The position numbers were made by a program, and so were the translations under genes. From NCBI GenBank assembly GCA_965222075.1, contig OZ244937.1:2944001-3008000 (forward strand): DNA of 64,000 nt, written 5' to 3'. Positions 35,619 to 48,023 of the stretch are shown here, in pieces. Below the pieces are notes generated by a model that saw nothing but the letters and a program-made list of their open reading frames with translations, searched no databases and was not told the origin of the DNA. Numbering within the stretch: position 1 is the stretch's first letter; each line of letters begins with the position of its first letter. This DNA is from Candidatus Latescibacterota bacterium (lineage in GTDB: Bacteria > Latescibacterota > UBA2968 > GCA-2709665).

Positions 35619-36854
35619 ATGAGCGGAGCAATCGCAATGCCGGATTTCACAGAAGAAGAGCTACTGCAAATCATCGCAGCCGGCGAAGCTGACCGCGTCG
35701 AATTCAAGGAGTCTTTGTCCGGTGACGCCGCCACCAGGATCAGGGAAGCCATCTGCGCTTTTGCCAACGACCTGCCCGACCACGGAAAACCCGGTCTCGT
35801 CTTCGTCGGAGTAAGGGACAACAAAACGATCGGGGATATATCGGTCACAAACCAATTGCTCCGACAGTTGGCCGATATGAAAACCGACGGCAATATCGTG
35901 CCGCCGCCATCGCTGACCGTTGAAAAGCGGGTGCTGCAAGGCAAAGAAGTGGCGCTGATCACAGTGCAACCCTCCAACTCGCCGCCGGTTCGCTGCAAAG
36001 GAGCCATCCACATCCGCATCGGCCCGCGCCGCGGCATCGCCACATCTCAGGATGAAAGGATGCTCAACGAAAAGCGGCGATACGGAGACCGCCCTTTCGA
36101 CCTCCAGCCAATTCCTACCGCCGGCTTGCCCGACCTCAATCTGACCCAGTTTGAGAACGAATACTTAACCGCAGCATTTCCGGATGAGGTACTGGCAGCA
36201 AACGATCGCAGCCTGAATGAGCAACTCGCCGCGACAAAAATGATCGTCGCTGCCGACCAGCCCACCGCGACCGTGCTGGGCATACTCACGATCGGCAAAA
36301 ACCCGCAGGATTTTCTGCCAGGTGCTTATGTGCAATTCCTCAGAATTAATGGCAACGAATATGCTAATGAAATAATTGATGCCGAAGAGATACGCGGTGC
36401 CATTCCAGAGCTTCTTCGCCATCTCGAAGAAAAACTGACGGCCCACAATCGCATCGCTGTGGATATCACAACGAGCTACATTGAACAACGAACTGAGCTG
36501 TACCCTATGGAAGCGTTGCACCAGATCACCCGCAACGCAGTGATGCACAGGACGTACGAAACAACCAACGCGCCGGTTCATGTCTATTGGTTCAATGACC
36601 GTATTGAGGTGATGAGCCCCGGTGGCGCGTTCGGGGCGGTGACAATCGAGAGCTTTGGGAAACCGGGATTGGTCGATTACCGCAACCCCAACCTGGCGGA
36701 ATCCATGAAAACACTGGGATATGTCCAGCGTTTTGGCGTAGGAATACCAATCGCCAAACGGCAGTTGGCGGCCGCGGGACATCCGGAACCTGAATTCGAT
36801 ATTTCCGATCACTTTGTGTCGGTAACGGTAAGGGGCAGGGGAGCAAAACAATGA
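35619..36854 (+). CDS. AlbA_2 (Schlafen-like) + HATPase_c_4 domain protein
   Basis: GEADRVEFKES, ICAFAN, FVGVRD; NAVMHRTY, RIEVMSPGG, YRNPNLA, GVGI. Confidence 0.85.
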   Translation: MSGAIAMPDFTEEELLQIIAAGEADRVEFKESLSGDAATRIREAICAFANDLPDHGKPGLVFVGVRDNKTIGDISVTNQLLRQLADMKTDGNIVPPPSLTVEKRVLQGKEVALITVQPSNSPPVRCKGAIHIRIGPRRGIATSQDERMLNEKRRYGDRPFDLQPIPTAGLPDLNLTQFENEYLTAAFPDEVLAANDRSLNEQLAATKMIVAADQPTATVLGILTIGKNPQDFLPGAYVQFLRINGNEYANEIIDAEEIRGAIPELLRHLEEKLTAHNRIAVDITTSYIEQRTELYPMEALHQITRNAVMHRTYETTNAPVHVYWFNDRIEVMSPGGAFGAVTIESFGKPGLVDYRNPNLAESMKTLGYVQRFGVGIPIAKRQLAAAGHPEPEFDISDHFVSVTVRGRGAKQ

Positions 36855-37894
36855 CCGTTCCCGTTTTGACTTTCTTCAACAACAAGAGCGGCGTCGGCAA
36901 AACTTCCCTTGTCTACCATCTGGCGTGGATGCTGTCCGACATCGGTTATCGGGTATTGGCCTGTGACCTGGACCCGCAGGCGAACCTCACCGCTGCATTT
37001 CTGAATGAAGAACAGTTGGAAAAGCTGTGGGACGAAGACAACGATGCCTCCGGGCGGACCATCCTGCAGTGCGTCCGGCCTTTGACGAAAGTAGGCGACA
37101 TTGAGGCCCCTACACTCGCAAATATCAGTCCTGCGCTGAGTCTGATACCAGGAGACTTAGCTTTGGCCGGATTTGAAGACACCCTCTCGTCAGAATGGCC
37201 CAACGCATTGGGCTCCGGCGAACTCTACCGCCCCTTCCGTATTCTGACTGCCTTCTCGACCGTCATGCAATCCGGGGCAAAACAGATGAACGCCTCGGTC
37301 ATCCTGGCCGACGTCGGCCCCAATCTTGGTGCGATTAACCGCTCCGCATTGATTGCCACCGATTACATCATCGTTCCGCTGGGTACCGACCTGTTTTCAC
37401 TCCAGGGCCTGCGCAACCTCGGCCCGACGCTGAATCGGTGGCGGCAAGACTGGCAGCGGCGAAGGGACAACTGGAGACAACCGGGCTTTCCACTGCCGGA
37501 TGGGGAGATGCAACCCGTCGGCTATGTGGTACAACAGCACGGCGTACGCCTGAGCCGCCCCGTCAAGGCGTATGACAAGTGGGTCAATCGAATGCCGGAA
37601 GAATACGCCCGCAACCTGCGCGGCGATAACGAAGGACCTTACCCCGCGACACCGGCACAAGATGAAGAACACGCCCTCGCCACCGTCAAGCACTACCGGA
37701 GCTTAGTGCCAATGGCTCAGGAAGCGCGCAAGCCCATTTTTCACCTCACCACGGCCGACGGTGCCATTGGCAGCCATGCCGCCGCTGCAAATGACGCACG
37801 CCGGGATTTCAGGGATTTGGCGAAGAAGATCGTACAAAGAATCAAGCTCAGGGACCTGCGGAGCACAGGAAAAGAGGCAACATGGAAAACGTAA
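36851..37894 (+). CDS. ParA-like (AAA_31) ATPase
   Basis: FFNNKSGVGKT, DLDPQANLT, DVGPNLGAINR; ATGA overlap with the upstream gene. Confidence 0.87.
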   Translation: MTVPVLTFFNNKSGVGKTSLVYHLAWMLSDIGYRVLACDLDPQANLTAAFLNEEQLEKLWDEDNDASGRTILQCVRPLTKVGDIEAPTLANISPALSLIPGDLALAGFEDTLSSEWPNALGSGELYRPFRILTAFSTVMQSGAKQMNASVILADVGPNLGAINRSALIATDYIIVPLGTDLFSLQGLRNLGPTLNRWRQDWQRRRDNWRQPGFPLPDGEMQPVGYVVQQHGVRLSRPVKAYDKWVNRMPEEYARNLRGDNEGPYPATPAQDEEHALATVKHYRSLVPMAQEARKPIFHLTTADGAIGSHAAAANDARRDFRDLAKKIVQRIKLRDLRSTGKEATWKT

Positions 37895-38028
37895 AAGAAG
37901 ATATAGGCGCCGCCAAAGCTGCCGATCCGACGGCGGACACCAGCGAGCAGGAAGCGGAGATAGATCAACAGGTCTATACACTGTACGGACTGACGGCGGA
38001 AGAGATCGCGGCGGTGGAAACTGTCTGA
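37882..38028 (+). pseudogene. 48-aa collapsed type IIG (Eco57I-like) R-M gene: start fused to C-terminal tail
   Basis: GAGG RBS; MENVKEDIGAAKAADPTADTSEQEAEIDQQVYTLYGLTAEEIAAVETV*. Confidence 0.7.
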
Positions 38029-38031
38029 ATC

Positions 38032-38315
38032 AGGATTATCAGGATGATAGGATTTTCAGGATGGAGGGATAGGTGGTTAAGCAGAGAGGAGGGGGTTCAG
38101 GATGAGCAGGATGGGAGGATGGGAGAATGAATGGATAAGTGGAGGGCAGAGTTTTCAAGATGGGAGGATTATCAGGATGATAGGATTTTCAGGATGGAGG
38201 GATAGGTGGTTAAGCAGAGAGGAGGGGGTTCAGGATGAGCAGGATGGGAGGATGGGAGAATGAATGGATAAGTGGAGGGCAGAGTTTTCAAGATGGGAGG
38301 ATTATCAGGATGATA
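38032..38315. repeat. 133-bp purine-rich tandem duplication (2 copies + 18 bp)
   Basis: aggattatcaggatgata recurs at 38032, 38165 and 38298 with identical intervening sequence. Confidence 0.93.
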
Positions 38316-38319
38316 CAGG

Positions 38320-38715
38320 ATGATAAATGATCCGCTGACATATAAGATTATTGGTTGTGCTATGAAAGTACACAATACGCTTGGGAATGGGTTTCAGGAA
38401 GTTATTTATCAGAGGTGCCTCGCTATTGAGTTGGAACGGACTGGAATCGATTTCAGTCGGGAGGTGGAGCAGACGATTTTTTATGATGGCATTGTAGTGG
38501 GAACGAGAAGAGCCGACTTTGTTGTCGCTAATCAAGTTGTGGTTGAGTTAAAAGCGGTCATTGAGCTGGCGGATGTTCACATTGCACAGGTGAAAAACTA
38601 TGTGGTGGCGTACGATTTTAATCTCGGTCTTTTGATCAACTTCGGGACAGAAAGTCTGGAATACAGACGGATATTCAACACGAAAAAGAATCCTGCAAAT
38701 CCAAAAATCCAGTAA
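38320..38715 (+). CDS. GxxExxY protein (PD-(D/E)xK-like)
   Basis: LGNGFQEVIY, RRADFVV, VELKA, GLLINFG. Confidence 0.92.
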   Translation: MINDPLTYKIIGCAMKVHNTLGNGFQEVIYQRCLAIELERTGIDFSREVEQTIFYDGIVVGTRRADFVVANQVVVELKAVIELADVHIAQVKNYVVAYDFNLGLLINFGTESLEYRRIFNTKKNPANPKIQ

Positions 38716-38716
38716 A

Positions 38717-38774
38717 GAAATCGCTCGAATCGGACGATCCCCGGCCAAAAGCCGGGGCATTCTGCGAGATTTTC
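38717..38774. repeat. 58-bp imperfect palindrome, copy A
   Basis: gaaatcgctcgaatcggacgatccccggccaaaagccggggcattctgcgagattttc flanked by GTAA. Confidence 0.9.
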
Positions 38775-38860
38775 GTAACCATACACCGTTTGCCAACGCC
38801 CAAACGTCGGCGGCAACACCTTCCACTGGCAGCCGATTTTGGTCCGGTAGAGGATGCCAG

Positions 38861-38914
38861 TATGAGCTGTACAGACTGACAGCGGAAGAAGTCGCGGCAG
38901 TGGAGGAGCGGTAG
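38861..38914 (+). pseudogene. Orphan type IIG R-M C-terminal tail, copy 2
   Basis: YELYRLTAEEVAAVEER*. Confidence 0.65.
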
Positions 38915-38923
38915 GGTTGACAG

Positions 38924-39085
38924 ATGAGGAACTCGTTCATCCGCCTGGCAGACCGCATCCTGACGGCCAAATCCGCCGACCCGAAGGCCAATACCAGTGA
39001 GCTGGAAGCGGAGATAGATCGGCTGGTCTATGCGCTGTACGGCCTGACGGAGGAAGAAATAGCAACAATAGAGGTGAAGATATGA
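38924..39085 (+). pseudogene. Orphan type IIG R-M C-terminal tail, copy 3
   Basis: MRNSFIRLADRILTAKSADPKANTSELEAEIDRLVYALYGLTEEEIATIEVKI*; stop overlaps the next ATG. Confidence 0.75.
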
Positions 39086-40496
39086 AAATCAGCGTGAAAA
39101 ATCTGGGCGTCCTGAAGCAGGCGGAATTTGAACTGGGCGAGTTGACCCTTATTTGCGGCGGCAATAATACGGGCAAAACCTACGCGACGTACGCCCTGTT
39201 TGGCTTTTTACGGCGCTGGGAACATTTGTTGAAAGTCGAAATTCCCAGTCAGGCTATTGACGCCCTACTGAGGGACGGCGTAACGCGGGTTGATATTGAG
39301 CCCTATGCCATCATGGAAGCGAACGACATCCTTAGACAGGGTTGCCGAGAGTACACCCGGCGACTCCCGAGAGTCTTTGCTTCGAAACCGGACCGCTTCA
39401 AAGACGCGACATTTCAAGTGTCTCTTGAACCGGAAACAATATCATCGATAAAGAGCCGTGCTTTTGAGCGCAGAAGAGGATCTGCCGAAGACGATCTTCT
39501 CTCCCTGTCCAAGTCTGAAGGAGAAAAGGACCTGGTGATCTCGCTACTGATGGACAAGGGGAAAAGAGCATTGCCCGCTGAAATGATTAAGGAAATAATC
39601 TCAGACGGGATTGTTGAATTACTCTTCGACCAATTTTTTCCCCGGCCTTTTATCGCCAGCACAGAGCGCACCGGCGCGGCAATTTTTCGCAAGGAACTGA
39701 ATTTTGCCCGAAACCGCTTGCTGGAAGAAATGAGTCGAGCGGATGAAAACATTAACCCGATGGAATTGTTGTTCAAGTCCTACCAGGACTATCCCTTGCC
39801 TGTCAAAGTCAACGTGGACTTTATCCGGCAACTTGAGAACGTTGCCAAAGAAGACAGCTTTCTTGTCGAAAACCATCATACTGAATGATTTCGCCGACAT
39901 CATCGGTGGCGAATACATCGCGGAAAGTAATGACACGATTTACTTCAAGCCCGCACGCAGACAACTGAAGCTGACAATGGACGAAAGTTCCAGCGCGGTG
40001 CGTTCCCTGTTGGATCGCGGGAATTGACACGATTTTTATTTGAGTCATGTCGCAAAATGTCGCAAAACCTGGCGACCTGCTGATGGTAGATGAGCCGGAA
40101 TTAAACCTGCACCCGGAAAATCAGCGTCGCATGGCTCGGCTCTTTGCGCGGTTGGTAAATCTGGGTATCCGCGTCTTCGTGACCACGCACAGCGACTATA
40201 TTGTCAAGGAACTCAACACCCTGATTATGTTGAATCAGAACAAGCCCTACCTGAAGCAAATCGCGCAAGAGGAAGGCTACCAAACCGAAGAGCTTATAGC
40301 TGCTGAAAAAATCAGGGTTTATATCGCAGAGAAAGCGTTGGTGAAGCTGGAAAACAAAAGCAGGAGAAGCCGACACCCAACGCTCGTGCCAACCAGGATA
40401 GACCCAGAGTTGGGGATTGAGGCACGTAGTTTCGACGAGACCATCAATAAAATGAATGAGATTCAGGAAGCCATTGTGTGGGGTGGAGATGAATGA
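39082..40496 (+). pseudogene. AAA_15/AAA_21 ABC-type ATPase, disrupted
   Basis: GGNNTGKT Walker A, ESSSAVRSL signature, VDEPELNLHP Walker B and TTHS fall in separate ORF pieces; lesions near 39875 and 40015-40060 include a 10-bp duplication (atgtcgcaaa). Confidence 0.85.
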
Positions 40497-41080
40497 TGTC
40501 CGACTTTGATATATTACGAGATTTGATTCGGGATGAGACGTTGGCCTCGGTTGAGTGTCAACATGGCAAAAAGATTATCGTCCTGGAGGAACCTGGCAAT
40601 CAACAACAATCAGCATATTCCCTGAAGATATGCAACGTGCCGGATGACATTATCGCGTTCAAAGCGGATGCTTTCCCGCCGCCAAACAGTATTTTCAAAA
40701 ACAGCAAAGGAGAATGTAAGCGGGCCGATTTTGTGGTCATCGCCAGTGACGACAAAGCAAACTGGATTGTTTACATAGAAATGAAAAGTGGCAAAGGCGA
40801 TTCGGAAAAAGAAATCGAGCAACAATTGCGTGGAGCACAATGCCTTGTCGCCTACTGCCGCGCCATTGGTCAGGAATTCTGGCAAGAGCCGAAATTCCTT
40901 GAAAAAAAGAATTACCAACAGCGTTTTATCAGCGTTAAAAATATTGGGATACCAAAACGGCCAACACAAATGCGGCCAGAATCCGGTCAGCACGACACGC
41001 CGGAACGTATGCTGAAAATCAACGCGCCAGCTGAAGGCGACCTGCGATTTAACAAACTGGTCGGATCAAATCGTGGTTGA
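40493..41080 (+). CDS. Hypothetical PD-(D/E)xK-like nuclease, partner of the ATPase
   Basis: CKRADFVV...YIEMKS; ATGA overlap with the ATPase. Confidence 0.6.
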   Translation: MMSDFDILRDLIRDETLASVECQHGKKIIVLEEPGNQQQSAYSLKICNVPDDIIAFKADAFPPPNSIFKNSKGECKRADFVVIASDDKANWIVYIEMKSGKGDSEKEIEQQLRGAQCLVAYCRAIGQEFWQEPKFLEKKNYQQRFISVKNIGIPKRPTQMRPESGQHDTPERMLKINAPAEGDLRFNKLVGSNRG

Positions 41081-41102
41081 GTAAATCCCAAAATCCAGTA
41101 AA

Positions 41103-41160
41103 GAAATCGCTCGAATCGGACGACCTCCGGCCAAAGGCCGGGGCATTCTGCGAGATTTTC
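41103..41160. repeat. 58-bp imperfect palindrome, copy B
   Basis: Near-identical to 38717-38774; flanked by GTAAA on both sides and followed by tcctgatcctgacaa. Confidence 0.9.
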
Positions 41161-41226
41161 GTAAATCCTGATCCTGACAATTGCACGGTCTCACGCCGAA
41201 GAAACTGCTATTGTGGAGGAAAGAGA

Positions 41227-43924
41227 ATGAGCGAACCACTAAAAGTATTCATCACTTATTCGCATAAGGATACAGACGCAAAGGATAAATTGATAGAGTG
41301 TCTTGCTGTGATGAAACAACAAGGCATCATAGCGATTTGGCACGATAACGAAATCCTCCCAGGTGACGAGTGGCGTGAAGACATTTCCAACAACCTTACC
41401 GGTTCAAACATTCTGCTTTACCTCGTCTCCGCTTCGAGTCTTGCTTCTGAAAACTGCAACAAGGAATTGGGCGAGTCATTAGACTCCAGGATAAGAGTCA
41501 TCCCCATTATCCTTGAGCGTTGCGATTGGCAAAATCATCAACTCAGCGACATCCAGGCTCTGCCTGATGAAGGCATGCCCATTAACGAATGGACGCCTGA
41601 GAGCACGGCCTGGCAAAATGTGGTAGAGGGTATCCGAAAAGTCGTTGACGAAATGCAAGATCAGCCAAAACTCTCATTTGTATAACACAAGAGGAAATAG
41701 AAATACTGACTTATTTGGCACTACAACGGGGTAACTTTCTGATGATGCTGAGGCAAATCGACAGGGCAATGGAAGCCTACTCACGTGCAATTGAGCTTAA
41801 CCCGGAATATGCCACTGCCTATAACAACCGTGGCAATACTTACGGCATCGAAGACGATGTTGACCGGGCTATCGAGGACTACAACAAGGCCATAGACCTG
41901 AACCCGGAATATGCCACTGCCTATAACAACCGCGGCATTGCTTACAGCCACAAAGGTGCGTATGACCGGGCTATCGAGGACTACAACAAGGCCATAGACC
42001 TGAACCCGGAATATGACTTAGCCTATAACAACCGCGGCACTGTTTACCACTTCCAAAAGGAGTATGACCATGCCATCGCAGACTATAGCCAAGCGATAGG
42101 CCTGAACCCGGATTATGCCACTGCCTATAACAACCGCGGCAATGCTTACAGTCACAAAGGCGCGTATGACCGGCCATCGTAGACTATAGCAAGGCGATAG
42201 GCCTGAACCCGGATTATGCCACTGCCTATAACAACCGCGGCAATGCTTATCGCAGAAAAGGCGCGTATGACCGGGCTGTCGAGGACTATAGCAAGGCGAT
42301 AGGCCTGAACCCGGATGATGCTACTGCCTATAACAACCGCGGCAATGCTTACAGCGACAGAGATGAGGTTGAACAGGCCATCGCAGACTATAGCAAGGCG
42401 ATAGAGTTGAACCCGGATGATGCCACTGCCTATAACAATCGCGGTGCTACTTACCGCTGCGAAGGTGTGGTTGACCGTGCTATTGCGGACTACAACAAGG
42501 CGATAGAATTGAACCCGCACTATGCCTTGGCCTATAACAATCGCGGCAATGCTTACAGCGACAAAGGCGCGTATGACCGGGCCATCGCAGACTACAACAA
42601 GGCGATAGACCTGAACCCGGAGTTTGCCTTGGCCTATTGCAATCGCGGCATGTATTGGCTGCGCTTGCAAAATTGGCAAGGAGCCAGATCAGACCTGACA
42701 GTTGCCAAGAGCATGGGCATGGATATTATCGCAGCATTTCGTAACGATTACAAAAATGTTGCGGCATTTGAGCGGAGATATGGTTTTCAGTTACCGGAAG
42801 ATATCACAATAATGCTGACGCAACGGCGACGGAGCCGTTTCCCCAAAACGTCAGAAGATTTGAGACAGCAGGTATCCCTTCTTCAAGACCAATCTTCCAA
42901 GACGGAAGAAGTCTTTAGTGCCGATGACACGTCCTCGCCTGATGTGTTGAACTTACTCACGAAACTTTGCAACGCCGGTACGCCGTTGGCGGAATACGTC
43001 AAGACGCGACCCTATTTCGGCATCAAGGTAGACAGGAACGAAGCGTTTGTCGTGGATAGCACGACGCGGGATAAGCTCATTGCGGAGCACCCTTCATCCG
43101 CTGATATTTTGAAGCCGTTTTTGCACGGGCGGGACATAAGACGCTGGCAGGTAGGTGCACAGGATTTGTGGTTGATCTTTGCCTACCGAGGAATAGAGAT
43201 AAACGGTTATCCCGCCATCCAGAAATACTTGGGGAAATACAGAGGTTCCCTGAGCAAAAGGGGGGGTAAACAGGAATGGTACGAGCTACAAGCGTCCCTC
43301 GACGACTCCGAGCGCTTTACGCAAACGAAGCTTGTCTGTCCAAATCTCTATAACCACCAAACTTTCGCCGTTGAGACGGATGGTTTTTACTGTGGGCATA
43401 CATGCTACCTTATCCCGACCGCAGAAAAGTGGTTATGCGGTGTCCTCAATTCCCGCGTTGTGGAGTGGTTTTATTCACATGAGTCGAACCAATTAACAGG
43501 CAAGGAACTTCGGGCACTCAGTGGCTATATGCAGCAGATCCCGATCCCCAATGTCACGTCAACGCAGAAGGGACTGATCGGCAAAATCGTCGATTATCTC
43601 ATCTATCTCCAGAAACAGCCGACTACAAACAGCAAGGATTTGGCACACGCCCGCGACCACGTAATGCTCAGATATTTTGAGCGGATAATCGACGGACTGG
43701 TTTATGAATTCTATTTGCCCGAGGAACTTCATCAGGGTGGCAAATATTTTTTCAAACCACTGTTGGACGAACAGTTGCCGCAACTTAAAGAGATTCAGGG
43801 TGATAAAATGTCTGCATTCCGGGGCATCTTCGAGCACCTGTATGAAAAAACTCATCCAGTTCGGAAGAACCTCTTCTTTCTCGATAGTTTAAAACCTATC
43901 CGCATCATTGAGGGCAAGCTATGA
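41227..43924 (+). pseudogene. TIR + TPR repeats + TaqI_C-like target recognition domain fusion, with two frameshifts
   Basis: TIR (VFITYSHKD, WHDNEILPG, SENCNKEL); shift near 41680; TPR units; 1-nt loss near 42172; then YFGIK...NEAFVVD...LKPFLHGRDIRRW...EWYELQ...LNSR...IPIP (IIG TRD-like). Confidence 0.8.
41770..42650 (+). repeat. 102-bp TPR-coding tandem repeat (9 units)
   Basis: AACCCG at 41799, 41901, 42003, 42105, 42206, 42308, 42410, 42512, 42614; the single 101-bp interval marks the frameshift. Confidence 0.9.
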
Positions 43925-45339
43925 GAGTTACCAAAATTGAGATTAAAAACTTCAGAGGCTTTTATGGAACCTACCAAATCAACCTGCATCAGGCAGGAAA
44001 AAACCTGCTGGTCTACGGCGAAAATGGAAGCGGAAAATCGTCGCTTTATCTTGCGTTAAAATTCTTCCTTGAATCCGGCGAGGATGCTTCCTACATATTT
44101 GAAAACTATCAGAACATCTTTATCACAGATGACGGCTACATCAAACTACATCTCAGTGCTAACCAACGGTCAAAGGCACGCATCTACGAATGGTCACAGA
44201 GCGTTAAAAAGACGAATGACCGTCTAATTATCGAAGCATCAAAGGCAAAGGGCTTCCTCGACTATAAGGCACTTCTGGAGACGCACTATATCCATCGCGA
44301 AAGCGGTACTGTGAATGTGTTCGATTTGCTGATTAAGAATCTCTTGGCAAACACCGTCAGCGTCCTAACAGGTCGAAGCCTTACCGACGATTGGGCTGAC
44401 ATTCAGCCACCATTTCCACGCCGAGATGCAACCTATAAAATTGCAACCCTTGAAGGACAGATAGAGAATTTCAACCACGAATTAGCAAGCAAATTAGCAG
44501 AACTGCAAACGAAGGCGTCCGAAATCCTCGGCAAATTTGGATACGACGTTGCCCTTGACTTCCAGTTTCAGGGGATTACATACAATCGCGACGAAAAAGC
44601 GCTTGATGGGGAGCAGATTCTATTAACAGTCAAGTTCTTTGACAAAGAGATTCCTGCACACCACCGCTTCCTGAACGAGGCTAAACTGTCGGCGATTGCG
44701 ATTGCTATCTACTTTTCTTCAATTTTGCTCCAGCCAGCCAGCGACCTGAAAATTCTCGCCTTAGATGACGTGCTAATCGGCTTGGACATGTCAAACCGCT
44801 TGCCTGTAATCGACATTATAGAAGAATACTTCTCAGATTATCAGATATTCTTCATGACCTATGATCGCACTTGGTATGAAATTGCCAAGCAACGGACGGC
44901 AGATAGTGAATGGAAATATGCTGAATTCTACTTCTCGAAAACCGACGAATACGAGATTCCGGTCTATATGGAAGATCGCGCGTATCTTGAAAAGGCGAAG
45001 GAGTATTTCGCTGCCAACGACTACAAAGCCTGCGTAATTTACCTTCGCACCGCCTTTGAAGTGGCAATCAAGAAATTCTGCGAGAAGAAGAATCTCCAAG
45101 TCAAGTACCGAGAAAATCCGAAGCGCCTGACAAGCGACGATTTCTGGACGCCAATAAAAAAGGGAAAGGACAGGTGGGGTGTGCCCTTTTTAGAACCGAC
45201 TCTCGTTAAAGAGATTGAACTGTACCGAAGCGTTATCCTAAACCCGCTTAGCCATGCTACCATTGTCACCACCATCAAAAAAGAGATCTCCGAGGCAATA
45301 AAAGCAGTGGGAAAACTTGAGGCGAAATTAAATCAGTAA
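43921..45339 (+). CDS. ABC/SMC-like ATPase with C-terminal HEPN-like domain (RloC/PrrC-like architecture)
   Basis: IEIKNFRG, GENGSGKSS, LNEAKL signature, LDDVLIGLD Walker B, C-terminal LRTAFE...YRSVILNPLSH. Confidence 0.75.
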   Translation: MRVTKIEIKNFRGFYGTYQINLHQAGKNLLVYGENGSGKSSLYLALKFFLESGEDASYIFENYQNIFITDDGYIKLHLSANQRSKARIYEWSQSVKKTNDRLIIEASKAKGFLDYKALLETHYIHRESGTVNVFDLLIKNLLANTVSVLTGRSLTDDWADIQPPFPRRDATYKIATLEGQIENFNHELASKLAELQTKASEILGKFGYDVALDFQFQGITYNRDEKALDGEQILLTVKFFDKEIPAHHRFLNEAKLSAIAIAIYFSSILLQPASDLKILALDDVLIGLDMSNRLPVIDIIEEYFSDYQIFFMTYDRTWYEIAKQRTADSEWKYAEFYFSKTDEYEIPVYMEDRAYLEKAKEYFAANDYKACVIYLRTAFEVAIKKFCEKKNLQVKYRENPKRLTSDDFWTPIKKGKDRWGVPFLEPTLVKEIELYRSVILNPLSHATIVTTIKKEISEAIKAVGKLEAKLNQ

Positions 45340-45340
45340 A

Positions 45341-45378
45341 GAAATTGCTCGAATCGGACGGTCCCCGGCCAAAAGCCG
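45341..45378. repeat. 58-bp palindrome, truncated copy C
   Basis: cagtaaa-gaaattgctcgaatcggacggtccccggccaaaagccg directly after the ATPase stop codon. Confidence 0.85.
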
Positions 45379-45496
45379 CCGATTTAGCCCCGTCCCTGAG
45401 TTTTACGAAAAACAGCCAATATTTTATAAATATTTATATTATAAAGACTTATGTCTTATCAATCGAGAACCTGTCAATTAAAACCTAAAAATTGTG

Positions 45497-45525
45497 TTGA
45501 CTATCAACTCAACTTTCGATATATT
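45497..45525 (+). promoter_or_regulatory. Sigma70-like promoter of the HTH operon
   Basis: TTGACT-17 bp-TATATT with AT-rich upstream DNA. Confidence 0.55.
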
Positions 45526-45575
45526 TAGCTCAGGCTGTTTAACCTCAATCATCAACGCCCTCATAGGAACTGCTC

Positions 45576-45920
45576 ATGCCAACATCATTTGGACAGGCTT
45601 TAAGAGAATTGCGACGATCCAAAAACGTGATCCAGAGAGACCTGGCTGCCCGGGTCGGCGTAGATTTTTCTTACATCAGCAAAGTGGAAAATGATCGCTT
45701 ACCCCCACCATCTGCTGATACCATTGTGAAAATTTGTGAAGCACTTTCCGTTCCAGCCGATCGTTTGCTCTCAATGACAGGCAAAGTACCTACACCGGTC
45801 CGCGAAATGGTAGGTAAAAGCACGGCTGCCCAACAGTTTATGCAACAGGCTCATAGCCTTGATCTCTCAGAAGAAGAGTGGGAAAAACTAACTCAAAACC
45901 TGAAACGATTGCGAAATTGA
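45576..45920 (+). CDS. XRE-family helix-turn-helix regulator
   Basis: FGQALRELR...QRDLAARVGVDFSYISKVEND. Confidence 0.88.
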   Translation: MPTSFGQALRELRRSKNVIQRDLAARVGVDFSYISKVENDRLPPPSADTIVKICEALSVPADRLLSMTGKVPTPVREMVGKSTAAQQFMQQAHSLDLSEEEWEKLTQNLKRLRN

Positions 45921-45960
45921 GCGTTTTGTATGCAGAAGTGTATTTCAGGAAGAAAATCTG

Positions 45961-46413
45961 ATGAGCACACAGTGGCTGGATATTCAGAGCTTCCAACAGA
46001 GTCAGGAACTCCTGTCCGCGACCAACACCCTGTCCATTCACCGTAAATTGACTGCCAGAGGTTATCCCGATACGAATAGAAAAGAAGCCGCAGAACAGGC
46101 GAGAGAGACCCTTGTAGCTTTTTTTCAGAAACTGGATAAAATCGTTCAGAACATCGAAGATGGGCATCGAAAGCCTGTCCTGGGTGTGGATGCCCGGTTG
46201 CGTCATCTGGCGGAAAATTACGTCCATGCAAAACGCGCTCGCGGTCAATCTCGTTCTCCATTTCTCGAACATCCTCTTTCTCAAGTCAGGGATTTGTTCT
46301 ATTCCGAACGCCCCGAAGACCGCCGTGAAGTACTGGCAGTCCTGGCGGCATTTCGCGAACTGCTTGAGGAACATGTCAGTGTTGATGCGAAGCGTTTGCT
46401 GGGAGATATCTGA
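45961..46413 (+). CDS. Hypothetical alpha-helical protein
   Basis: 150-aa ORF co-oriented between the HTH and ATPase genes; no family recognised. Confidence 0.6.
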   Translation: MSTQWLDIQSFQQSQELLSATNTLSIHRKLTARGYPDTNRKEAAEQARETLVAFFQKLDKIVQNIEDGHRKPVLGVDARLRHLAENYVHAKRARGQSRSPFLEHPLSQVRDLFYSERPEDRREVLAVLAAFRELLEEHVSVDAKRLLGDI

Positions 46414-46514
46414 TTGTTTCACATCCTCCGACAAAACTTAATTTGACCTGGCCCATAAGGGATCCAGGAATAGCCAGATACATTGGAAAAACTGTTGCGT
46501 TGAGAGAGGCAAAA

Positions 46515-48023
46515 ATGGTGAGCAAGCAGAGTTCACTTTTTTGGGATGATGGAATTTCGCCGCAATTGGCCGCTGACTTGCGTCGTCTGAATCCATGGTG
46601 GGAGGACGATCCTATGCCTCCACAGCCAAAGACGCGCCGCCACCTGGTCGCACAGATACGCCGTCTTTTGGAGGCAGAGATTGCTCCGATCGTCGTGGTG
46701 CGCGGCCCTCGGCAGGTGGGAAAGACGACCGCGCAGTTTCAAATCATCGCGGACTTGCTTGAAGAAGGCGTACCTTCCACAAACATCCTCCGGGTCCAGT
46801 TCGACGAATTAGCCTCACTGCGAGGGACGAAGGAGCCGATTCTTTCCATCTCCAACTGGTTTGAACGGAAGATAACAGAGGATCGTTTCAACGCGCTGGC
46901 GCGAGACGGCCGGAAGGCTTATCTCTTTTTTGACGAAGTGCAGAACCTCGATGACTGGGACGCGCAACTCAAGTCTCTTGTGGACAACGCCGCGGTAAAG
47001 GCCGTGGTCACGGGAAGTTCCGCACTGAGGATTGAAATGGGCCGGGACAGCCTGGCCGGGCGCGTCAATACGGTCGAAGCGGGTGTGCTTTCGCTGACTG
47101 AAATCGGTGCGTTGCGCGAGTTGGAAACTCTGAAGCCATTCCTGCCGGACAACGGTCTGAGTCACTTGATCGACAAGGGTTTCTGGCAGGAACTGCGTGC
47201 GTACGGACAGGAAAACACGGGATTTCTGAAAGAGGTGTTCGGGCATTTTTCAGAGCGTGGAGGCTATCCGATCGTCCACAAGCTAAGGGATGTCGAATGG
47301 GCTTTGCTTGCGGACCAGTTGAACGAAACTGTGATTAAGCGCGTTATTGAACACGACCTCCGGGTGGGTCGCCGCGGGCGAAAGAGGGATGCCCAACTAC
47401 TTGAGGAGCTTTTCCGCCTGACCTGCCGCTATGCCGGGCAGGCGCCGACAGTTTCGACGCTTGCGGACGAGGTCCGGCAATCACTCGGCGCAAATATTGG
47501 CAGCCAGCGAGTCACTCATTATTTGAAGTTTCTCAGTGAGACGCTTCTGCTTCGGTTGATTCCTCCGCTTGAGATACGTCTCAAAAGAAAGCGAGGAAGT
47601 TCCAAACTTTGTCTGGTCGATCACGGCTTGCGAGCCAGTTGGCTTCAGGAACAGATACCATTAACGCCTGAAGCCCTGGCAGAACACCCTGAACTCACCT
47701 CGTTAGCCGGCCATCTCGCTGAGAGTATTTTCGGCTCGGTTGCTTCGACAATTCACGGCCTGGACATCGCCCATTTCCCCGAACGAGGAATGGATCGTGA
47801 AGTGGATTTCGTTTTGACCATCGGCGCTCAACGCTTGCCGGTGGAAATCAAATATCAACGTAAGATAGATCCCCTGCGGGATACGCTGGGCATTCGGTCA
47901 TTCCTCGAAAAATCAGTCAACAACGCCTCATTTGGCTTGCTGATCACTCAGGACTATTCCGGGGAAGTTGACGACCCCCGAATCGTGAGCCTGCCTCTTT
48001 CAACCTTTATGCTTATCAGATGA
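46515..48023 (+). CDS. AAA_14 ATPase + DUF4143 domain protein
   Basis: NPWW, GPRQVGKTT, FFDEVQ, VTGSS, GGYP, EVDFV...PVEIK. Confidence 0.88.
   Translation: MVSKQSSLFWDDGISPQLAADLRRLNPWWEDDPMPPQPKTRRHLVAQIRRLLEAEIAPIVVVRGPRQVGKTTAQFQIIADLLEEGVPSTNILRVQFDELASLRGTKEPILSISNWFERKITEDRFNALARDGRKAYLFFDEVQNLDDWDAQLKSLVDNAAVKAVVTGSSALRIEMGRDSLAGRVNTVEAGVLSLTEIGALRELETLKPFLPDNGLSHLIDKGFWQELRAYGQENTGFLKEVFGHFSERGGYPIVHKLRDVEWALLADQLNETVIKRVIEHDLRVGRRGRKRDAQLLEELFRLTCRYAGQAPTVSTLADEVRQSLGANIGSQRVTHYLKFLSETLLLRLIPPLEIRLKRKRGSSKLCLVDHGLRASWLQEQIPLTPEALAEHPELTSLAGHLAESIFGSVASTIHGLDIAHFPERGMDREVDFVLTIGAQRLPVEIKYQRKIDPLRDTLGIRSFLEKSVNNASFGLLITQDYSGEVDDPRIVSLPLSTFMLIR

Follow-up and report, generated by a model that had tools for sequence, protein, structure and literature searches.

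A 64,000-nt stretch of the genome of a Candidatus Latescibacterota bacterium (the window, by which the whole stretch is meant) contains several copies of a short coding sequence, the tail, beside candidate defence genes. An earlier note proposed that the 3′ end of a type IIG methylase gene is an active, integrase-free site at which modules of a tail plus linked defence genes are added serially. Is the locus such a site, or does it have another origin? We read the window as a variant of known embedded defence cassettes and not as an active integrase-free capture array. In relatives, the methylase of the locus is of the type IIG-like Eco57I/TaqI_C kind. Comparison of these relatives revealed the build of the family: a conserved methylase body, a hypervariable target recognition domain (TRD) and a short conserved C-terminal tail whose coding sequence runs into the start of an ABC ATPase gene downstream.

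Tails and small elements in the window

The genome is a single closed 5.36-Mb contig, which argues against a chimeric or collapsed assembly as the source of the repeated tails. The junction of tails 2 and 3 and the arrangement of the ParA-like gene and tail 1 are mirrored in independent genomes, and 74-84% of sampled 31-mers of 37600-41300 are present in six runs from three studies, one of which may be the source sample. An assembly artefact is thus extremely improbable. The features are listed in Table 1; G+C content is back to 59-63% past about position 48000 of the window.

Table 1. Features of the locus, in window coordinates
Feature	Position	Strand	Evidence and remarks
PLD(HKD)-SNF2 helicase, intact, 1087 aa	32343-35606	+	Pfam PLDc_2, SNF2-rel_dom, Helicase_C
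AlbA_2/HATPase_c_4 protein	35619-36854	+	Pfam; embedded between helicase and methylase
ParA-like ATPase	36851-37894	+	Pfam; embedded between helicase and methylase
Tail 1	37882-38028	+	48-aa ORF; resident methylase after in-frame internal deletion
Perfect tandem repeat, 133 nt x 2.1	38032-38315		Purine-rich, AGGAT-rich; directly upstream of GxxExxY gene
GxxExxY-type PD-(D/E)XK protein (PDDEXK_3), 131 aa	38320-38715	+	Pfam E 1.3e-39
Short hairpin repeat, begins at TAA stop codon	38717-38778	+	Copies at 41103-41164 (95%) and 45341-45378 (partial)
IS4/IS5-family transposase fragment (DUF4096 N-terminal domain)	38745-38861	-	Pfam PF13340, positions 34-72 of the 76-position profile, E 9.2e-9
Tail 2	38861-38914	+	17 aa, partial, 5′-truncated; first of tandem orphan pair
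Tail 3	38924-39085	+	53-aa ORF; second orphan tail of pair; hybrid by alignment
PDC-M47A / PD-T4-4_A-like ABC ATPase, pseudogene in three frames	39082-40496	+	PADLOC 1.9e-108 (N-terminal part), 1.3e-77 (C-terminal part)
PDC-M47B / PD-T4-4_B-like partner, 195 aa, open	40493-41080	+	PADLOC 3.3e-66
TIR-TPR-TaqI_C fusion gene, ~898 codons, two frameshifts	41227-43924	+	tblastn with L047 protein; Pfam
Rad50/SMC-like ABC ATPase, 472 aa, open	43921-45339	+	Pfam SMC_N; profile search matches Rad50 chains
HTH_3 regulator	45576-45920	+	Pfam, PADLOC; right part of island
150-aa ORF, no assigned family	45961-46413	+	Recurs in 5/10 relatives' loci
AAA_14/DUF4143 ATPase (PDC-S01)	46443-48023	+	Pfam, PADLOC

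Three type-A tails, all in direct orientation, lie where the earlier note had placed them. Tail 1 and tail 3 matched each other with E values of 2.9e-11 to 2.9e-12 in tblastn searches against the whole 5.36-Mb genome, and their DNA is 82% identical over 98 nt; judged by sequence, this similarity is far beyond chance. Tail 2 alone gave a weak match (E 0.037 to 0.26) and was confirmed because tails 2 and 3 together match a tandem tail pair in the related genome G101. No further copies of the type-A tail were found in the genome by tblastn.

Tail 1 consists of the first 8 codons of the methylase fused to its last ~39 codons. Its start region is 83% identical to the start of the G101 methylase over 42 nt, and its end matches the methylase tails of G020 (87.6% over 121 nt), G018 (88%) and G016 (83%). 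Thus, tail 1 is what a deletion left of the resident gene and not an acquired module, which speaks against serial capture. A methylase of about 1000-1258 aa is kept in all ten orthologous loci. In contrast to the earlier view that a type IIG gene ends here, the genome's ten Eco57I-domain matches all lie outside the window, and a tblastn search with the methylase of a relative found only the tails and the TRD ending at 43924. No polypeptide of the window carries an N6-adenine methyltransferase domain beside a TRD. Eco57I and TaqI_C domains occur in one polypeptide in G021 and L051. The first ~450-600 residues of these two methylases have no Pfam match; the adjacent helicase bears a PLD nuclease domain, and the best PADLOC matches of the relatives' methylases are type IIG models.

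The segment 38861-39062 is 82% identical over 202 nt to orphan tails a and b of G101, junction included. Given the common junction, tails 2 and 3 were inherited together and not captured singly here; the junction is older than this genome, so the tails were not built up serially in it. The 5′ part of tail 3 is nearest to orphan b of G101 (83%), whereas its identity to the resident tail 1 is only 72%, like a foreign arrival, which favours capture. Homology to an ATPase-linked remnant begins at 39022 (G013), 39047 (G018) or 39063 (G016). By these alignments, tail 3 is of hybrid make-up: its final 20-60 nt represent the remnant found ahead of the PD-T4-4-like ATPase gene in relatives; here the breakpoint inside a tail that the earlier note had predicted was found. 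Tail 3 and orphan b differ with a dN/dS of 0.17 over 48 codons. This apparent purifying selection on an orphan tail is unexplained by a pure fossil reading. Tail copies within a single genome are only 68-84% identical, which argues against any recent event. The near-identical repeats that would mark recent capture were not found, and the idea of ongoing capture was not supported.

The claim that tail 1 runs straight into GxxExxY as defence cargo failed on both counts: the tandem repeat intervenes, and GxxExxY is no established defence gene. AGGAT-type tandem repeats also lie ahead of the other GxxExxY gene of the genome, and remnants of the 3′ end of the gene at 38320-38715 occur in G002, in G020 and at 41065-41102 of the window. 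On the 5′ side, tail 2 is cut by the transposase fragment; no second copy of the segment 38779-38860 exists in the genome. What follows three of the units is the hairpin repeat and not a tail, contrary to the capture model. At least five partial copies of it lie elsewhere in the genome, several immediately after stop codons, and none was found in the relatives' loci searched; its folding z-scores are weak (-2.6, -1.7 and -1.3). Features of an integron were also looked for. As to an IntI-type tyrosine recombinase by the array, no match to a relative's tyrosine recombinase was found anywhere in the window. There is no attC-like palindrome per cassette, since the hairpin repeat is a genome-wide element after stop codons, and no attC core motif was seen in it by eye.

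Cargo and methylase tails in related genomes

The PLD-SNF2 helicase is the conserved left flank of the locus, with full-length orthologues of 72-83% identity in 11 relatives. Its best PADLOC match is C3a139 'HKD+Snf2' (6.3e-112); HmaA is much weaker at 1.7e-23. The AlbA_2/HATPase_c_4 and ParA-like pair also lies upstream of the methylase in G018, G002 and G020, and the ParA part in G101. Downstream of the methylase, the region differs across all ten orthologous loci, as expected by the earlier note. Furthermore, direct tail copies bracket differing cargo in the window and in six relatives, a point in favour of capture: PDC-M11A/B lies between the methylase tail and two orphan tails in G101, a DUF2806 gene lies between tails in G020, RhuM in G055 and G057, and a 505-aa ORF in G059, while G013 holds the same cassette as G101 with the same left and right ends.

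G134 provides an empty-site comparator for G101; none was found for the window itself. The G101 insert is ~2.9 kb long, lacks a mobility gene and has direct repeats of more than 30 bp on both sides. These repeats are ~114-172 bp long, 77-78% identical to the G134 empty site and 79-83% identical to each other. This agrees in each point with insertion with long target duplication, which the available text of Furuta, Abe and Kobayashi 2010 (PMC2853133) defines by an insert below 20 kb without mobility genes, direct repeats of more than 30 bp and a comparator with an empty site; TRD substitution within a type IIG gene is also listed there. Unlike the cases in that text, in which the R-M system is the insert, here the duplicated target is the 3′ end of an R-M-like gene, into which other defence candidates have gone as the insert; in addition, the repeats are old, and one side is a tandem pair.

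It might be argued that the tails are pseudogene fragments with no role in recombination, located at junctions by chance, as the frameshifted genes, the IS fragment and the deleted methylase of the region would allow. However, the same tail pattern recurs in three families of the phylum, the cassette ends are common to G013 and G101, an empty site exists in G134 and tail 3 is under coding constraint. We therefore consider chance debris improbable.

The PD-T4-4-like pair shows how one cargo unit is linked to a tail. The ATGA overlap of tail 3 with the ATPase gene, described in the earlier note, is borne out by coordinates (39082-39085). Both genes of the window match PADLOC models over the full profile length, in the order of the PD-T4-4 / PDC-M47 family, ABC ATPase A and then small partner B, with A disrupted here by a 5-nt deletion and by 12-nt and 10-nt insertions. 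The ATPase is intact in G018 and G016 (464-468 aa), and the partner is 70-72% identical to the G018, G013 and G016 proteins. PD-T4-4-like genes lie a few kb downstream of a type-A methylase on the same strand in these three genomes; in G137, G088 and G028, coordinates place them ~1.7-2.4 kb downstream of the tail of such a methylase. A tail upstream of the close ATPase gene was detected by tblastn in only four of 14 loci, and the remnant was judged by eye in the rest. The alignments suggest that the tail remnant travels with the PD-T4-4-like genes as a native companion, the end of tail 3 being a native leader. The two-gene composition of ABC ATPase and small partner is that of PD-T4-4 (Vassallo et al. 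2022, PMC9519451) and of the PADLOC candidate PDC-M47, whereas in the window the ATPase gene is a pseudogene and in this lineage a methylase-tail remnant overlaps the ATPase start.

Across alleles, the methylase body is 40-89% identical and the TRD columns are only 9-43% identical even among methylases of the same tail type, while the tail is conserved within a tail type. The view of the conserved tail as a junction point is supported. Tails also occur as convergent pairs in 11 genomes, one in a long open frame and the other in an inverted frame of ~72-266 aa; in three of these genomes the first frame is shorter, cut or broken. Among the orphan forms of relatives, the inverted TRD-tail is the commonest. 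Four loci were examined; in each, the inverted piece corresponds to the methylase's last ~250 aa (50-70% identity) and is adjoined by a tyrosine recombinase (four of the ten orthologous loci). The description of the array as integrase-free is not borne out; the window itself holds no match to a relative's tyrosine recombinase, a point for capture. The relatives' arrangement resembles the Type I hsdS invertons in the available text of Huang et al. 2020 (PMC7672463), in which a full-length gene is accompanied by a partial TRD copy in inverted orientation and by a tyrosine recombinase; it differs in that the TRD belongs to a type IIG-like methylase of a single chain, and inversion was not seen. 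In the window, there is no inverted partial TRD copy with an invertase.

These relatives raise the alternative that orphan tails are leftovers of recombinase-driven silent TRD-tail cassettes, the TRD parts and the recombinase having been deleted later, as the convergent pairs and the four inverted methylase ends with a recombinase beside them would suggest. On the other hand, the tails of the window are all direct, 17-53 aa long and without a TRD, and no recombinase remnant is present. The tandem a/b pair of G101 follows the inserted cassette and is not beside a recombinase, and the inverted repeats of relatives are only 71-75% complementary. This origin is also quite unlikely.

The TIR-TPR-TaqI_C protein and its ATPase

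The second tail subtype, tail B, was regarded as a complete TRD plus tail at 43924 within the array of orphans. A TaqI_C domain with a different tail is indeed present, but this module is no orphan and forms the C-terminus of a TIR-TPR-TaqI_C protein paired with its own Rad50-like ATPase. The gene is frameshifted near 41660-41676 and at 42173; the intact 898-aa protein of L047 aligned by tblastn, in three frames, to 41227-41658, 41676-42173 and 42173-43918. The family has 856 matches at E <= 1e-10. Its TIR domain matches ThsB (2.7e-27, PADLOC), and a full-text literature search for PF12950 gave no match. In its TIR domain and the combination of TIR with TPR repeats, the protein resembles Thoeris ThsB and the BcTir/BcTpr operon (bioRxiv 10.1101/2023.05.26.542521); in contrast, TIR-TPR is here fused to a TaqI_C DNA-recognition-type domain plus tail, with a Rad50-like ATPase as partner.

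The ATGA overlap of this gene with the ATPase gene was correctly described (43921-43924). In all 15 related loci, the gene upstream of the Rad50-like ATPase gene ends 4 nt into it, and these upstream genes are nine TIR-TPR-TaqI_C genes and six methylases behind a PLD-SNF2 helicase. The tail-ATPase link is thus a native operon junction and not the mark of a captured module, and tail B is almost never orphaned: only two of 21 copies are in short frames, one of them a 91-aa frame possibly cut by the contig end.

Complex prediction for tail B and the Rad50-like ATPase gave 0.78 (runs 0.79, 0.00 and 0.78; stated agreement between runs at least 0%), with a partner pLDDT of at least 71, against 0.00 for the best of three controls. 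Of 80 solved complexes, 58 reached this mark, as did two of 110 mismatched pairs, counts that hold only roughly because our own alignments were used. The confident interface falls on the tail, at residues 285-379 of a C-terminal piece of 380 residues, and a sequence search found no solved complex of this kind. The prediction, which covers tail B only, supports docking of tail B on the Rad50-like ATPase.

The TIR-TPR-TaqI_C plus ATPase unit was found in none of the 21 same-family genomes searched. This suggests that the unit was imported, as the capture model would have it. Further to the right, the AAA_14 gene shares 80% identity with the genes located after the type-B systems of L051 and L055.

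Relation to known systems and origin of the locus

Defence genes nested within Hma, BREX, DISARM and Type I systems have been reported previously. Payne et al. (bioRxiv 10.1101/2024.01.29.577857) state that 62.7% of 1,485 Hma systems hold embedded genes; the word 'recombination' is absent from the main text of that paper, and no embedding mechanism was found there. As in Hma in that text, the genes for helicase, methylase and ATPase share one strand in relatives, and further genes on this strand are nested between them or trail them. This architecture is found in L051, L055, L056, L057, L060 and L061, and in the window without the methylase. The nested genes match the PADLOC candidates PDC-M47, PDC-M11, PDC-S01 and PDC-S66, which appear to come from the guilt-by-embedding screen of Payne et al. 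The differences from Hma are that the helicase here has an N-terminal PLD nuclease domain, that the methylase of the window is lost and that Hma models are not the best matches: none is among the 25 best PADLOC matches listed for the methylases or the ATPase, and the locus ATPase matches LmuB, mad3 and PbeC. Moreover, compared with the embedding described in the available text of Payne et al., the cassette borders here coincide with methylase-tail copies.

Rhs and CDI toxin loci contain orphan C-terminal modules, displaced 3′ fragments that lie downstream in direct orientation. The present locus is like them in having a conserved sequence beside a variable C-terminal part and displaced direct 3′ fragments. 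However, its orphans are the conserved tail only (17-61 aa) and include neither a variable domain nor an immunity gene, and the surviving variable TRD copies in relatives are inverted.

Weighing these observations, we consider an active site that adds tails with linked defence genes serially unlikely. The region is probably the decayed 3′ half of an Hma-like helicase-methylase-ATPase locus together with a horizontally acquired second two-gene system, in which the tails serve as docking module and as junctions, and the array is now a fossil. The tail would be a docking and translational-coupling module for the downstream ATPase, as the complex prediction suggests for tail B, and this role would explain the joint inheritance of tail and ATPase. 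Because the tail is the only conserved DNA beside the hypervariable TRD, homologous recombination between alleles would cross over there. Such crossovers may have produced TRD swaps, tail duplications that bracket cargo, and hybrid tails. In many relatives, a tyrosine recombinase beside an inverted silent TRD-tail copy may add specificity switching by inversion. Tails 2 and 3 would then be orphans of old date that lie in tandem at the cargo slot. The array is regarded as a fossil here because the methylase is gone, two genes, the PD-T4-4-like ATPase gene and the TIR-TPR-TaqI_C gene, are broken by multi-nucleotide indels, and insertion has added an IS fragment and a GxxExxY element. Since no recent recombination or duplication was caught, the mechanism is drawn from junction patterns alone.

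Tentatively, the tail may have a dual use, a possibility that we doubt somewhat less than serial capture: as protein it would dock the ABC ATPase, and as DNA its direct repeats would bracket a slot for integrase-free cassette exchange by homologous recombination, the same module having let a TIR-TPR effector replace the methylase body. The orphan tail would then be kept under selection perhaps to stay recombination-competent; alternatively, the orphan peptide of 53-61 aa might itself dock or regulate the cargo ATPase.

In summary, the window alone is ordinary biology, a decaying defence island. The coincidence of the borders of embedded cassettes with methylase-tail copies is a concrete, testable clue in this lineage. 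From their sequences, TIR-TPR-TaqI_C and its Rad50-like ATPase form a populous unnamed family and a plausible new abortive-infection system, and the presence of TIR-TPR instead of a methylase on TaqI_C plus tail would represent natural effector swapping on a shared sensor module.

Layout of the island and its methylase remains

The source genome is one closed contig of 5.36 Mb, and an island of lower G+C content lies at 32.3-48.0 kb of the window (43-58% inside vs 59-67% outside). Gene order was taken from Pfam and PADLOC matches, and all features lie on the plus strand except for a transposase fragment. An Rfam scan of 37500-46500 returned only two matches, both far under threshold.

Features of the island in their order, with window coordinates
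Feature	Coordinates	Place in the order	Strand	Source
EVE-domain gene		first, upstream of helicase	+	Pfam/PADLOC
PLD-SNF2 helicase, intact		after EVE-domain gene	+	Pfam/PADLOC
AlbA_2/HATPase_c_4 protein		after PLD-SNF2 helicase	+	Pfam/PADLOC
ParA-like ATPase		between AlbA_2/HATPase_c_4 gene and tail 1	+	Pfam/PADLOC
Tail 1 (type A)	37882-38028	between ParA-like ATPase and GxxExxY genes	+	
Perfect tandem repeat, 133 nt x 2.1	38032-38315	between tail 1 and GxxExxY gene	+	
GxxExxY PD-(D/E)XK protein		after tandem repeat	+	Pfam/PADLOC
Short hairpin repeat	38717-38778	after GxxExxY gene	+	
IS4/IS5 transposase fragment		between hairpin repeat and tail 2	-	Pfam
Tail 2 (type A, partial)	38861-38914	between transposase fragment and PDC-M47A	+	
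Tail 3 (type A)	38924-39085	between transposase fragment and PDC-M47A	+	
PDC-M47A / PD-T4-4_A-like ABC ATPase, in three frames		after tail 3	+	Pfam/PADLOC
PDC-M47B		after PDC-M47A	+	Pfam/PADLOC
Short hairpin repeat	41103-41164			
TIR, TPR and TPR+TaqI_C pieces		after PDC-M47B	+	Pfam/PADLOC
Rad50/SMC-like ATPase	43921-45339		+	Pfam/PADLOC
Short hairpin repeat	45341-45378			
HTH regulator, 150-aa ORF, AAA_14/DUF4143 ATPase (PDC-S01)		right end, in that order	+	Pfam/PADLOC

The earlier note had placed three copies of a conserved methylase C-terminal motif, here called tails, at the 3' end of a restriction-modification gene of type IIG. The three tails do lie where it had put them, and the coordinates agree with the ATGA overlaps by which tail 3 and tail B (the C-terminal end of the module with a target-recognition domain, TRD, that finishes at 43924) run into ATPase gene starts. 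However, no methylase domain was found anywhere in the window, which holds only the remains of such an end. Tail 1 and tail 3 do repeat the motif (E about 1e-11 when the whole genome is searched; 82% DNA identity over 98 nt), whereas tail 2 alone is weak, with 17 residues, and was validated through the related genome G101. The whole-genome search revealed no copy of the motif beyond the window's tails.

The earlier note had tail 1 running straight into the GxxExxY gene, but the tandem repeat follows it. Its ORF of 48 codons opens with the methylase's own start: over 42 nt around the ATG, identity to the G101 methylase start is 83%, and 8 codons are followed in frame by the methylase's last ~39 codons. 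The closest methylase tails are those of the relatives G020, G018 and G016 (87.6%, 88% and 83% by BLAST; in a fixed register of 123 nt, 82%, 78% and 74%). Since its start matches a methylase start and its end matches methylase tails, tail 1 appears to be what an internal deletion of about 3.5 kb left of the resident methylase gene.

G101 belongs to the same class but to a different family. It has a tandem pair of orphan tails joined just as tail 2 and tail 3 are, and window 38861-39062 is 82% identical to them over 202 nt. Because the junction is common to both, the pair would have been inherited or transferred as a unit, not assembled in this genome. Tail 3 itself is a hybrid. Up to 39062 it is 83% identical to the second G101 orphan (orphan b) and only 72% identical to tail 1, and it is homologous to the sequence ahead of the PD-T4-4-like ATPase gene from 39022 (G013), 39047 (G018) or 39063 (G016) onwards. 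A tail remnant overlapping the start of this ATPase gene was observed at 4 of the 14 loci with a close homologue by tblastn (window, G009, G013 and G015); the remaining loci have a short similar stretch only, as judged by eye. Tail 3 and orphan b (locus L093 of G101) show 14.0 synonymous and 10.0 non-synonymous differences (dN/dS 0.17, 48 codons). Tail 3 is as constrained as functional tails, which is unexpected for a gene fragment and is unexplained by the reading of the tails as fossils. The ATG of the tail 3 ORF is conserved in orphan b.

Compared with G018 and G016, the window's PD-T4-4-like ATPase gene has lost 5 nt and gained insertions of 12 nt and 10 nt, none of which is a homopolymer error. 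Sampled words of 37600-41300 are present (74-84%) in six sequencing runs from three studies, and one of the runs may be the source sample. Runs with shares of 0.07-0.13 were left out of account.

AGGAT-rich tandem repeats precede both GxxExxY (PDDEXK_3) genes of the source genome; the second gene has ~17 copies of a 9-mer ahead (genome coordinates about 398300-398480), and an Eco57I-type methylase ORF adjoins. A second PLD-SNF2 helicase (1141-aa frame) with an Eco57I methylase (1120-aa frame) lies at 1221085-1228114 of this genome, has another tail variant and appears intact. The short repeat, which follows three island genes, has a 7-bp G+C hairpin and begins exactly at TAA stop codons, with the form 'TAAAGAAAT...'. 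Copies were observed in the genome near 4657347, 2769640-2769781, 3992132, 1878340 and 1473454, and longer, two-hairpin versions occur elsewhere in it. It looks like a host-specific terminator or a REP-like element. An attC-like cassette end was rejected because the repeat is genome-wide, starts at stop codons and folds weakly, and the window has no recombinase. Membership in an IS fragment is unsupported, as 38779-38860 is single-copy in the genome, yet a Pfam DUF4096 match reaches 38745.

Methylases, cargo and inverted tails in related genomes

Full-length helicase orthologues (72-83% identity) were found in 11 related genomes, and 26 kb around 10 of them were compared. At all 10 loci, a protein of about 1000-1258 aa lies downstream of the helicase and aligns with Eco57I+TaqI_C methylases over roughly the first 1000 alignment columns; PADLOC gave type IIG models for two methylases of relatives. 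The helicase-methylase interval holds a sigma-70-like protein or an AlbA_2-ParA pair. In many relatives this interval encodes a ~540-565-aa protein with sigma-70 regions 2-4 and a partial PADLOC match to MzaA (L029:14957-16576 in G021, L057:510-2204, L098:4449-6095). In G018 (L027:4512-8327) and G016, the methylase and PD-T4-4-like genes are separated by a 1271-aa protein that matches nothing in Pfam or PADLOC. In an alignment of 16 methylases, from which zones were defined, the body is a conserved mosaic (40-89% identity), the TRD is hypervariable even within one tail type (9-43%), and the tail is short and of discrete types: A (the motif of tails 1 to 3), B (as at 43924) and at least one other. 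The part of the earlier proposal that foresaw a kept left flank, here the helicase, and a region 3' of the methylase that varies by genome was supported in relatives, but tail 1 and the tail 2-tail 3 pair are no serial captures in this genome. Remnants of relatives' cargo (the sigma-like protein, an IS DDE_Tnp_1_4, the 1271-aa protein, PDC-M11A and a 404-aa TIR protein) were absent from the window at E <= 1e-4.

A census of 168 genomes from the phylum, with tail 3 as query, recorded 61 matches spread over 36 of them. Open frames of at least 950 aa hold 24 matches, 2 are intermediate, and 35 lie in frames of at most 266 aa, some of which are frameshifted gene ends. Several relatives have cargo between tails. 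The order in G101 is methylase with tail, PDC-M11A, PDC-M11B, orphan a, orphan b and the 404-aa TIR protein. In G134, the 404-aa TIR gene lies 45 nt after the methylase tail, and the 3.1 kb from there on share 84% identity with G101; G134 thus provides the empty site to set beside the filled site of G101. The M11 cassette of G013 has both ends as in G101, the left inside the tail and the right just before a decayed tail, and is followed by PD-T4-4-like genes in place of the TIR gene. A DUF2806 gene lies between methylase tail and orphan tail in G020, and a RhuM gene (G055, G057) or a 505-aa ORF (G059) lies between two tails. The RhuM-family genes, from another family of the phylum, are bracketed by direct methylase-type tails (L095 6457-7816 in G055; L096 5717-7577 in G057). 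Since tail copies inside one genome are only 68-84% identical, these events are old.

The census also revealed convergent tail pairs in 11 genomes, with one tail in a long frame and the other in an inverted frame of ~72-266 aa; in 3 of the 11 pairs the "long" frame is shorter, cut or broken. Inverted copies were studied at four loci, L029 (G021), L031 (G002), L037 (G040) and L045 (G025). At all four, the inverted piece corresponds to the methylase's last ~250 aa (50-70% identity) and is best kept at the TRD-proximal border. The gene that comes next belongs to one cluster, whose G021 member is a Phage_integrase-family recombinase. Inverted-repeat arms, 71-75% complementary, are present at three of the four loci and none at the fourth, in a search for long perfect inverted repeats. 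With a type IIG-like single-chain methylase, an inverted TRD-tail copy of ~250 aa and a tyrosine recombinase, these loci look like candidates for a specificity inverton that is not part of a Type I system. They share their architecture with the specificity invertons of Type I hsdS genes. Neither an inverted tail copy nor a recombinase was found on searching the window.

A TIR-TPR-TaqI_C family and its ATPase

Titled MAG records from Latescibacterota, Poribacteria and Gemmatimonadetes contain 16 relatives of the Rad50/SMC-like ATPase, and the gene ahead ends 4 nt into the ATPase gene at all 15 loci with upstream DNA. At 6 of the 15 loci this gene encodes a 1170-1306-aa methylase and lies behind a PLD-SNF2 helicase, and at 9 it encodes a TIR-TPR(n)-TaqI_C protein that is 646-1254 aa long (Pfam was checked for one of the six and five of the nine). 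The nine loci are L047 (3308-7422), L048, L049, L050, L052, L053, L054, L058 and L059, with an overlapping Rad50-like ATPase gene after each. In the window copy, three frames together cover 41227-43918 when aligned to the intact L047 protein of 898 aa; its breaks are a 13-nt insertion and a G run that falls one base short of the run in the three other repeat units compared.

The family comprises 856 proteins at E <= 1e-10 and is unnamed. Among the 120 matches listed, all carry PF12950 and TPR families and most carry TIR_2, and the TRD region is 66-87% identical among matches listed. The TRD is conserved in this family, whereas it is hypervariable in the methylases. PADLOC models match parts of the protein piecemeal, never as a system. 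A full-text literature search on PF12950 found nothing, and among the TIR-TPR papers listed, none describes a TaqI_C fusion, judged by title and the opening of the abstract. Upstream of the PD-T4-4-like ATPase gene at L070, L073 and L074, the TIR-TPR gene stops at the linker that runs on into the TRD in the window's gene, and a decayed tail remnant and PD-T4-4-like genes come directly after it. This suggests that further module swaps may have occurred between TIR-TPR and PD-T4-4-like systems.

Tail B is almost never orphaned: short frames hold 2 of its 21 copies. It was found in none of the 21 same-family genomes searched, which points to horizontal acquisition of the module. A complex prediction, made for tail B only, paired the last 380 residues with the ATPase and scored 0.78 (runs 0.79, 0.00 and 0.78; best of 3 controls 0.00), at a stated run agreement of at least 0% and a partner pLDDT of at least 71. 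Among solved complexes, 58 of 80 attain the 0.78 mark; among mismatched pairs, 2 of 110 do. Confident predicted contacts lie at residues 285-379, that is, in the tail. Sequence searches for a solved complex of this kind found none.

Possible roles of the tail

Active, integrase-free serial capture of tail-linked defence cargo, as proposed in the earlier note, is not needed to explain the window, and several details contradict it. In a weaker form of the proposal, tails may be the homology arms of a cargo slot. The closest known frames are Hma systems with embedded cassettes (bioRxiv 10.1101/2024.01.29.577857), insertion with long target duplication along with substitution of the TRD in type IIG genes (PMC2853133), and hsdS invertons (PMC7672463).

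We propose that the tail may be conserved for a protein-level reason, namely that it would dock the downstream ATPase, as the prediction has it, and also couple translation. The tail would also be a natural crossover point because it borders the hypervariable TRD. A tail that is both a docking and coupling module and a crossover point would explain why tails lie at cassette borders, why some of them are hybrid and why tail and ATPase are inherited together. The newest by-product of this analysis is the TIR-TPR-TaqI_C family with its ATPase.
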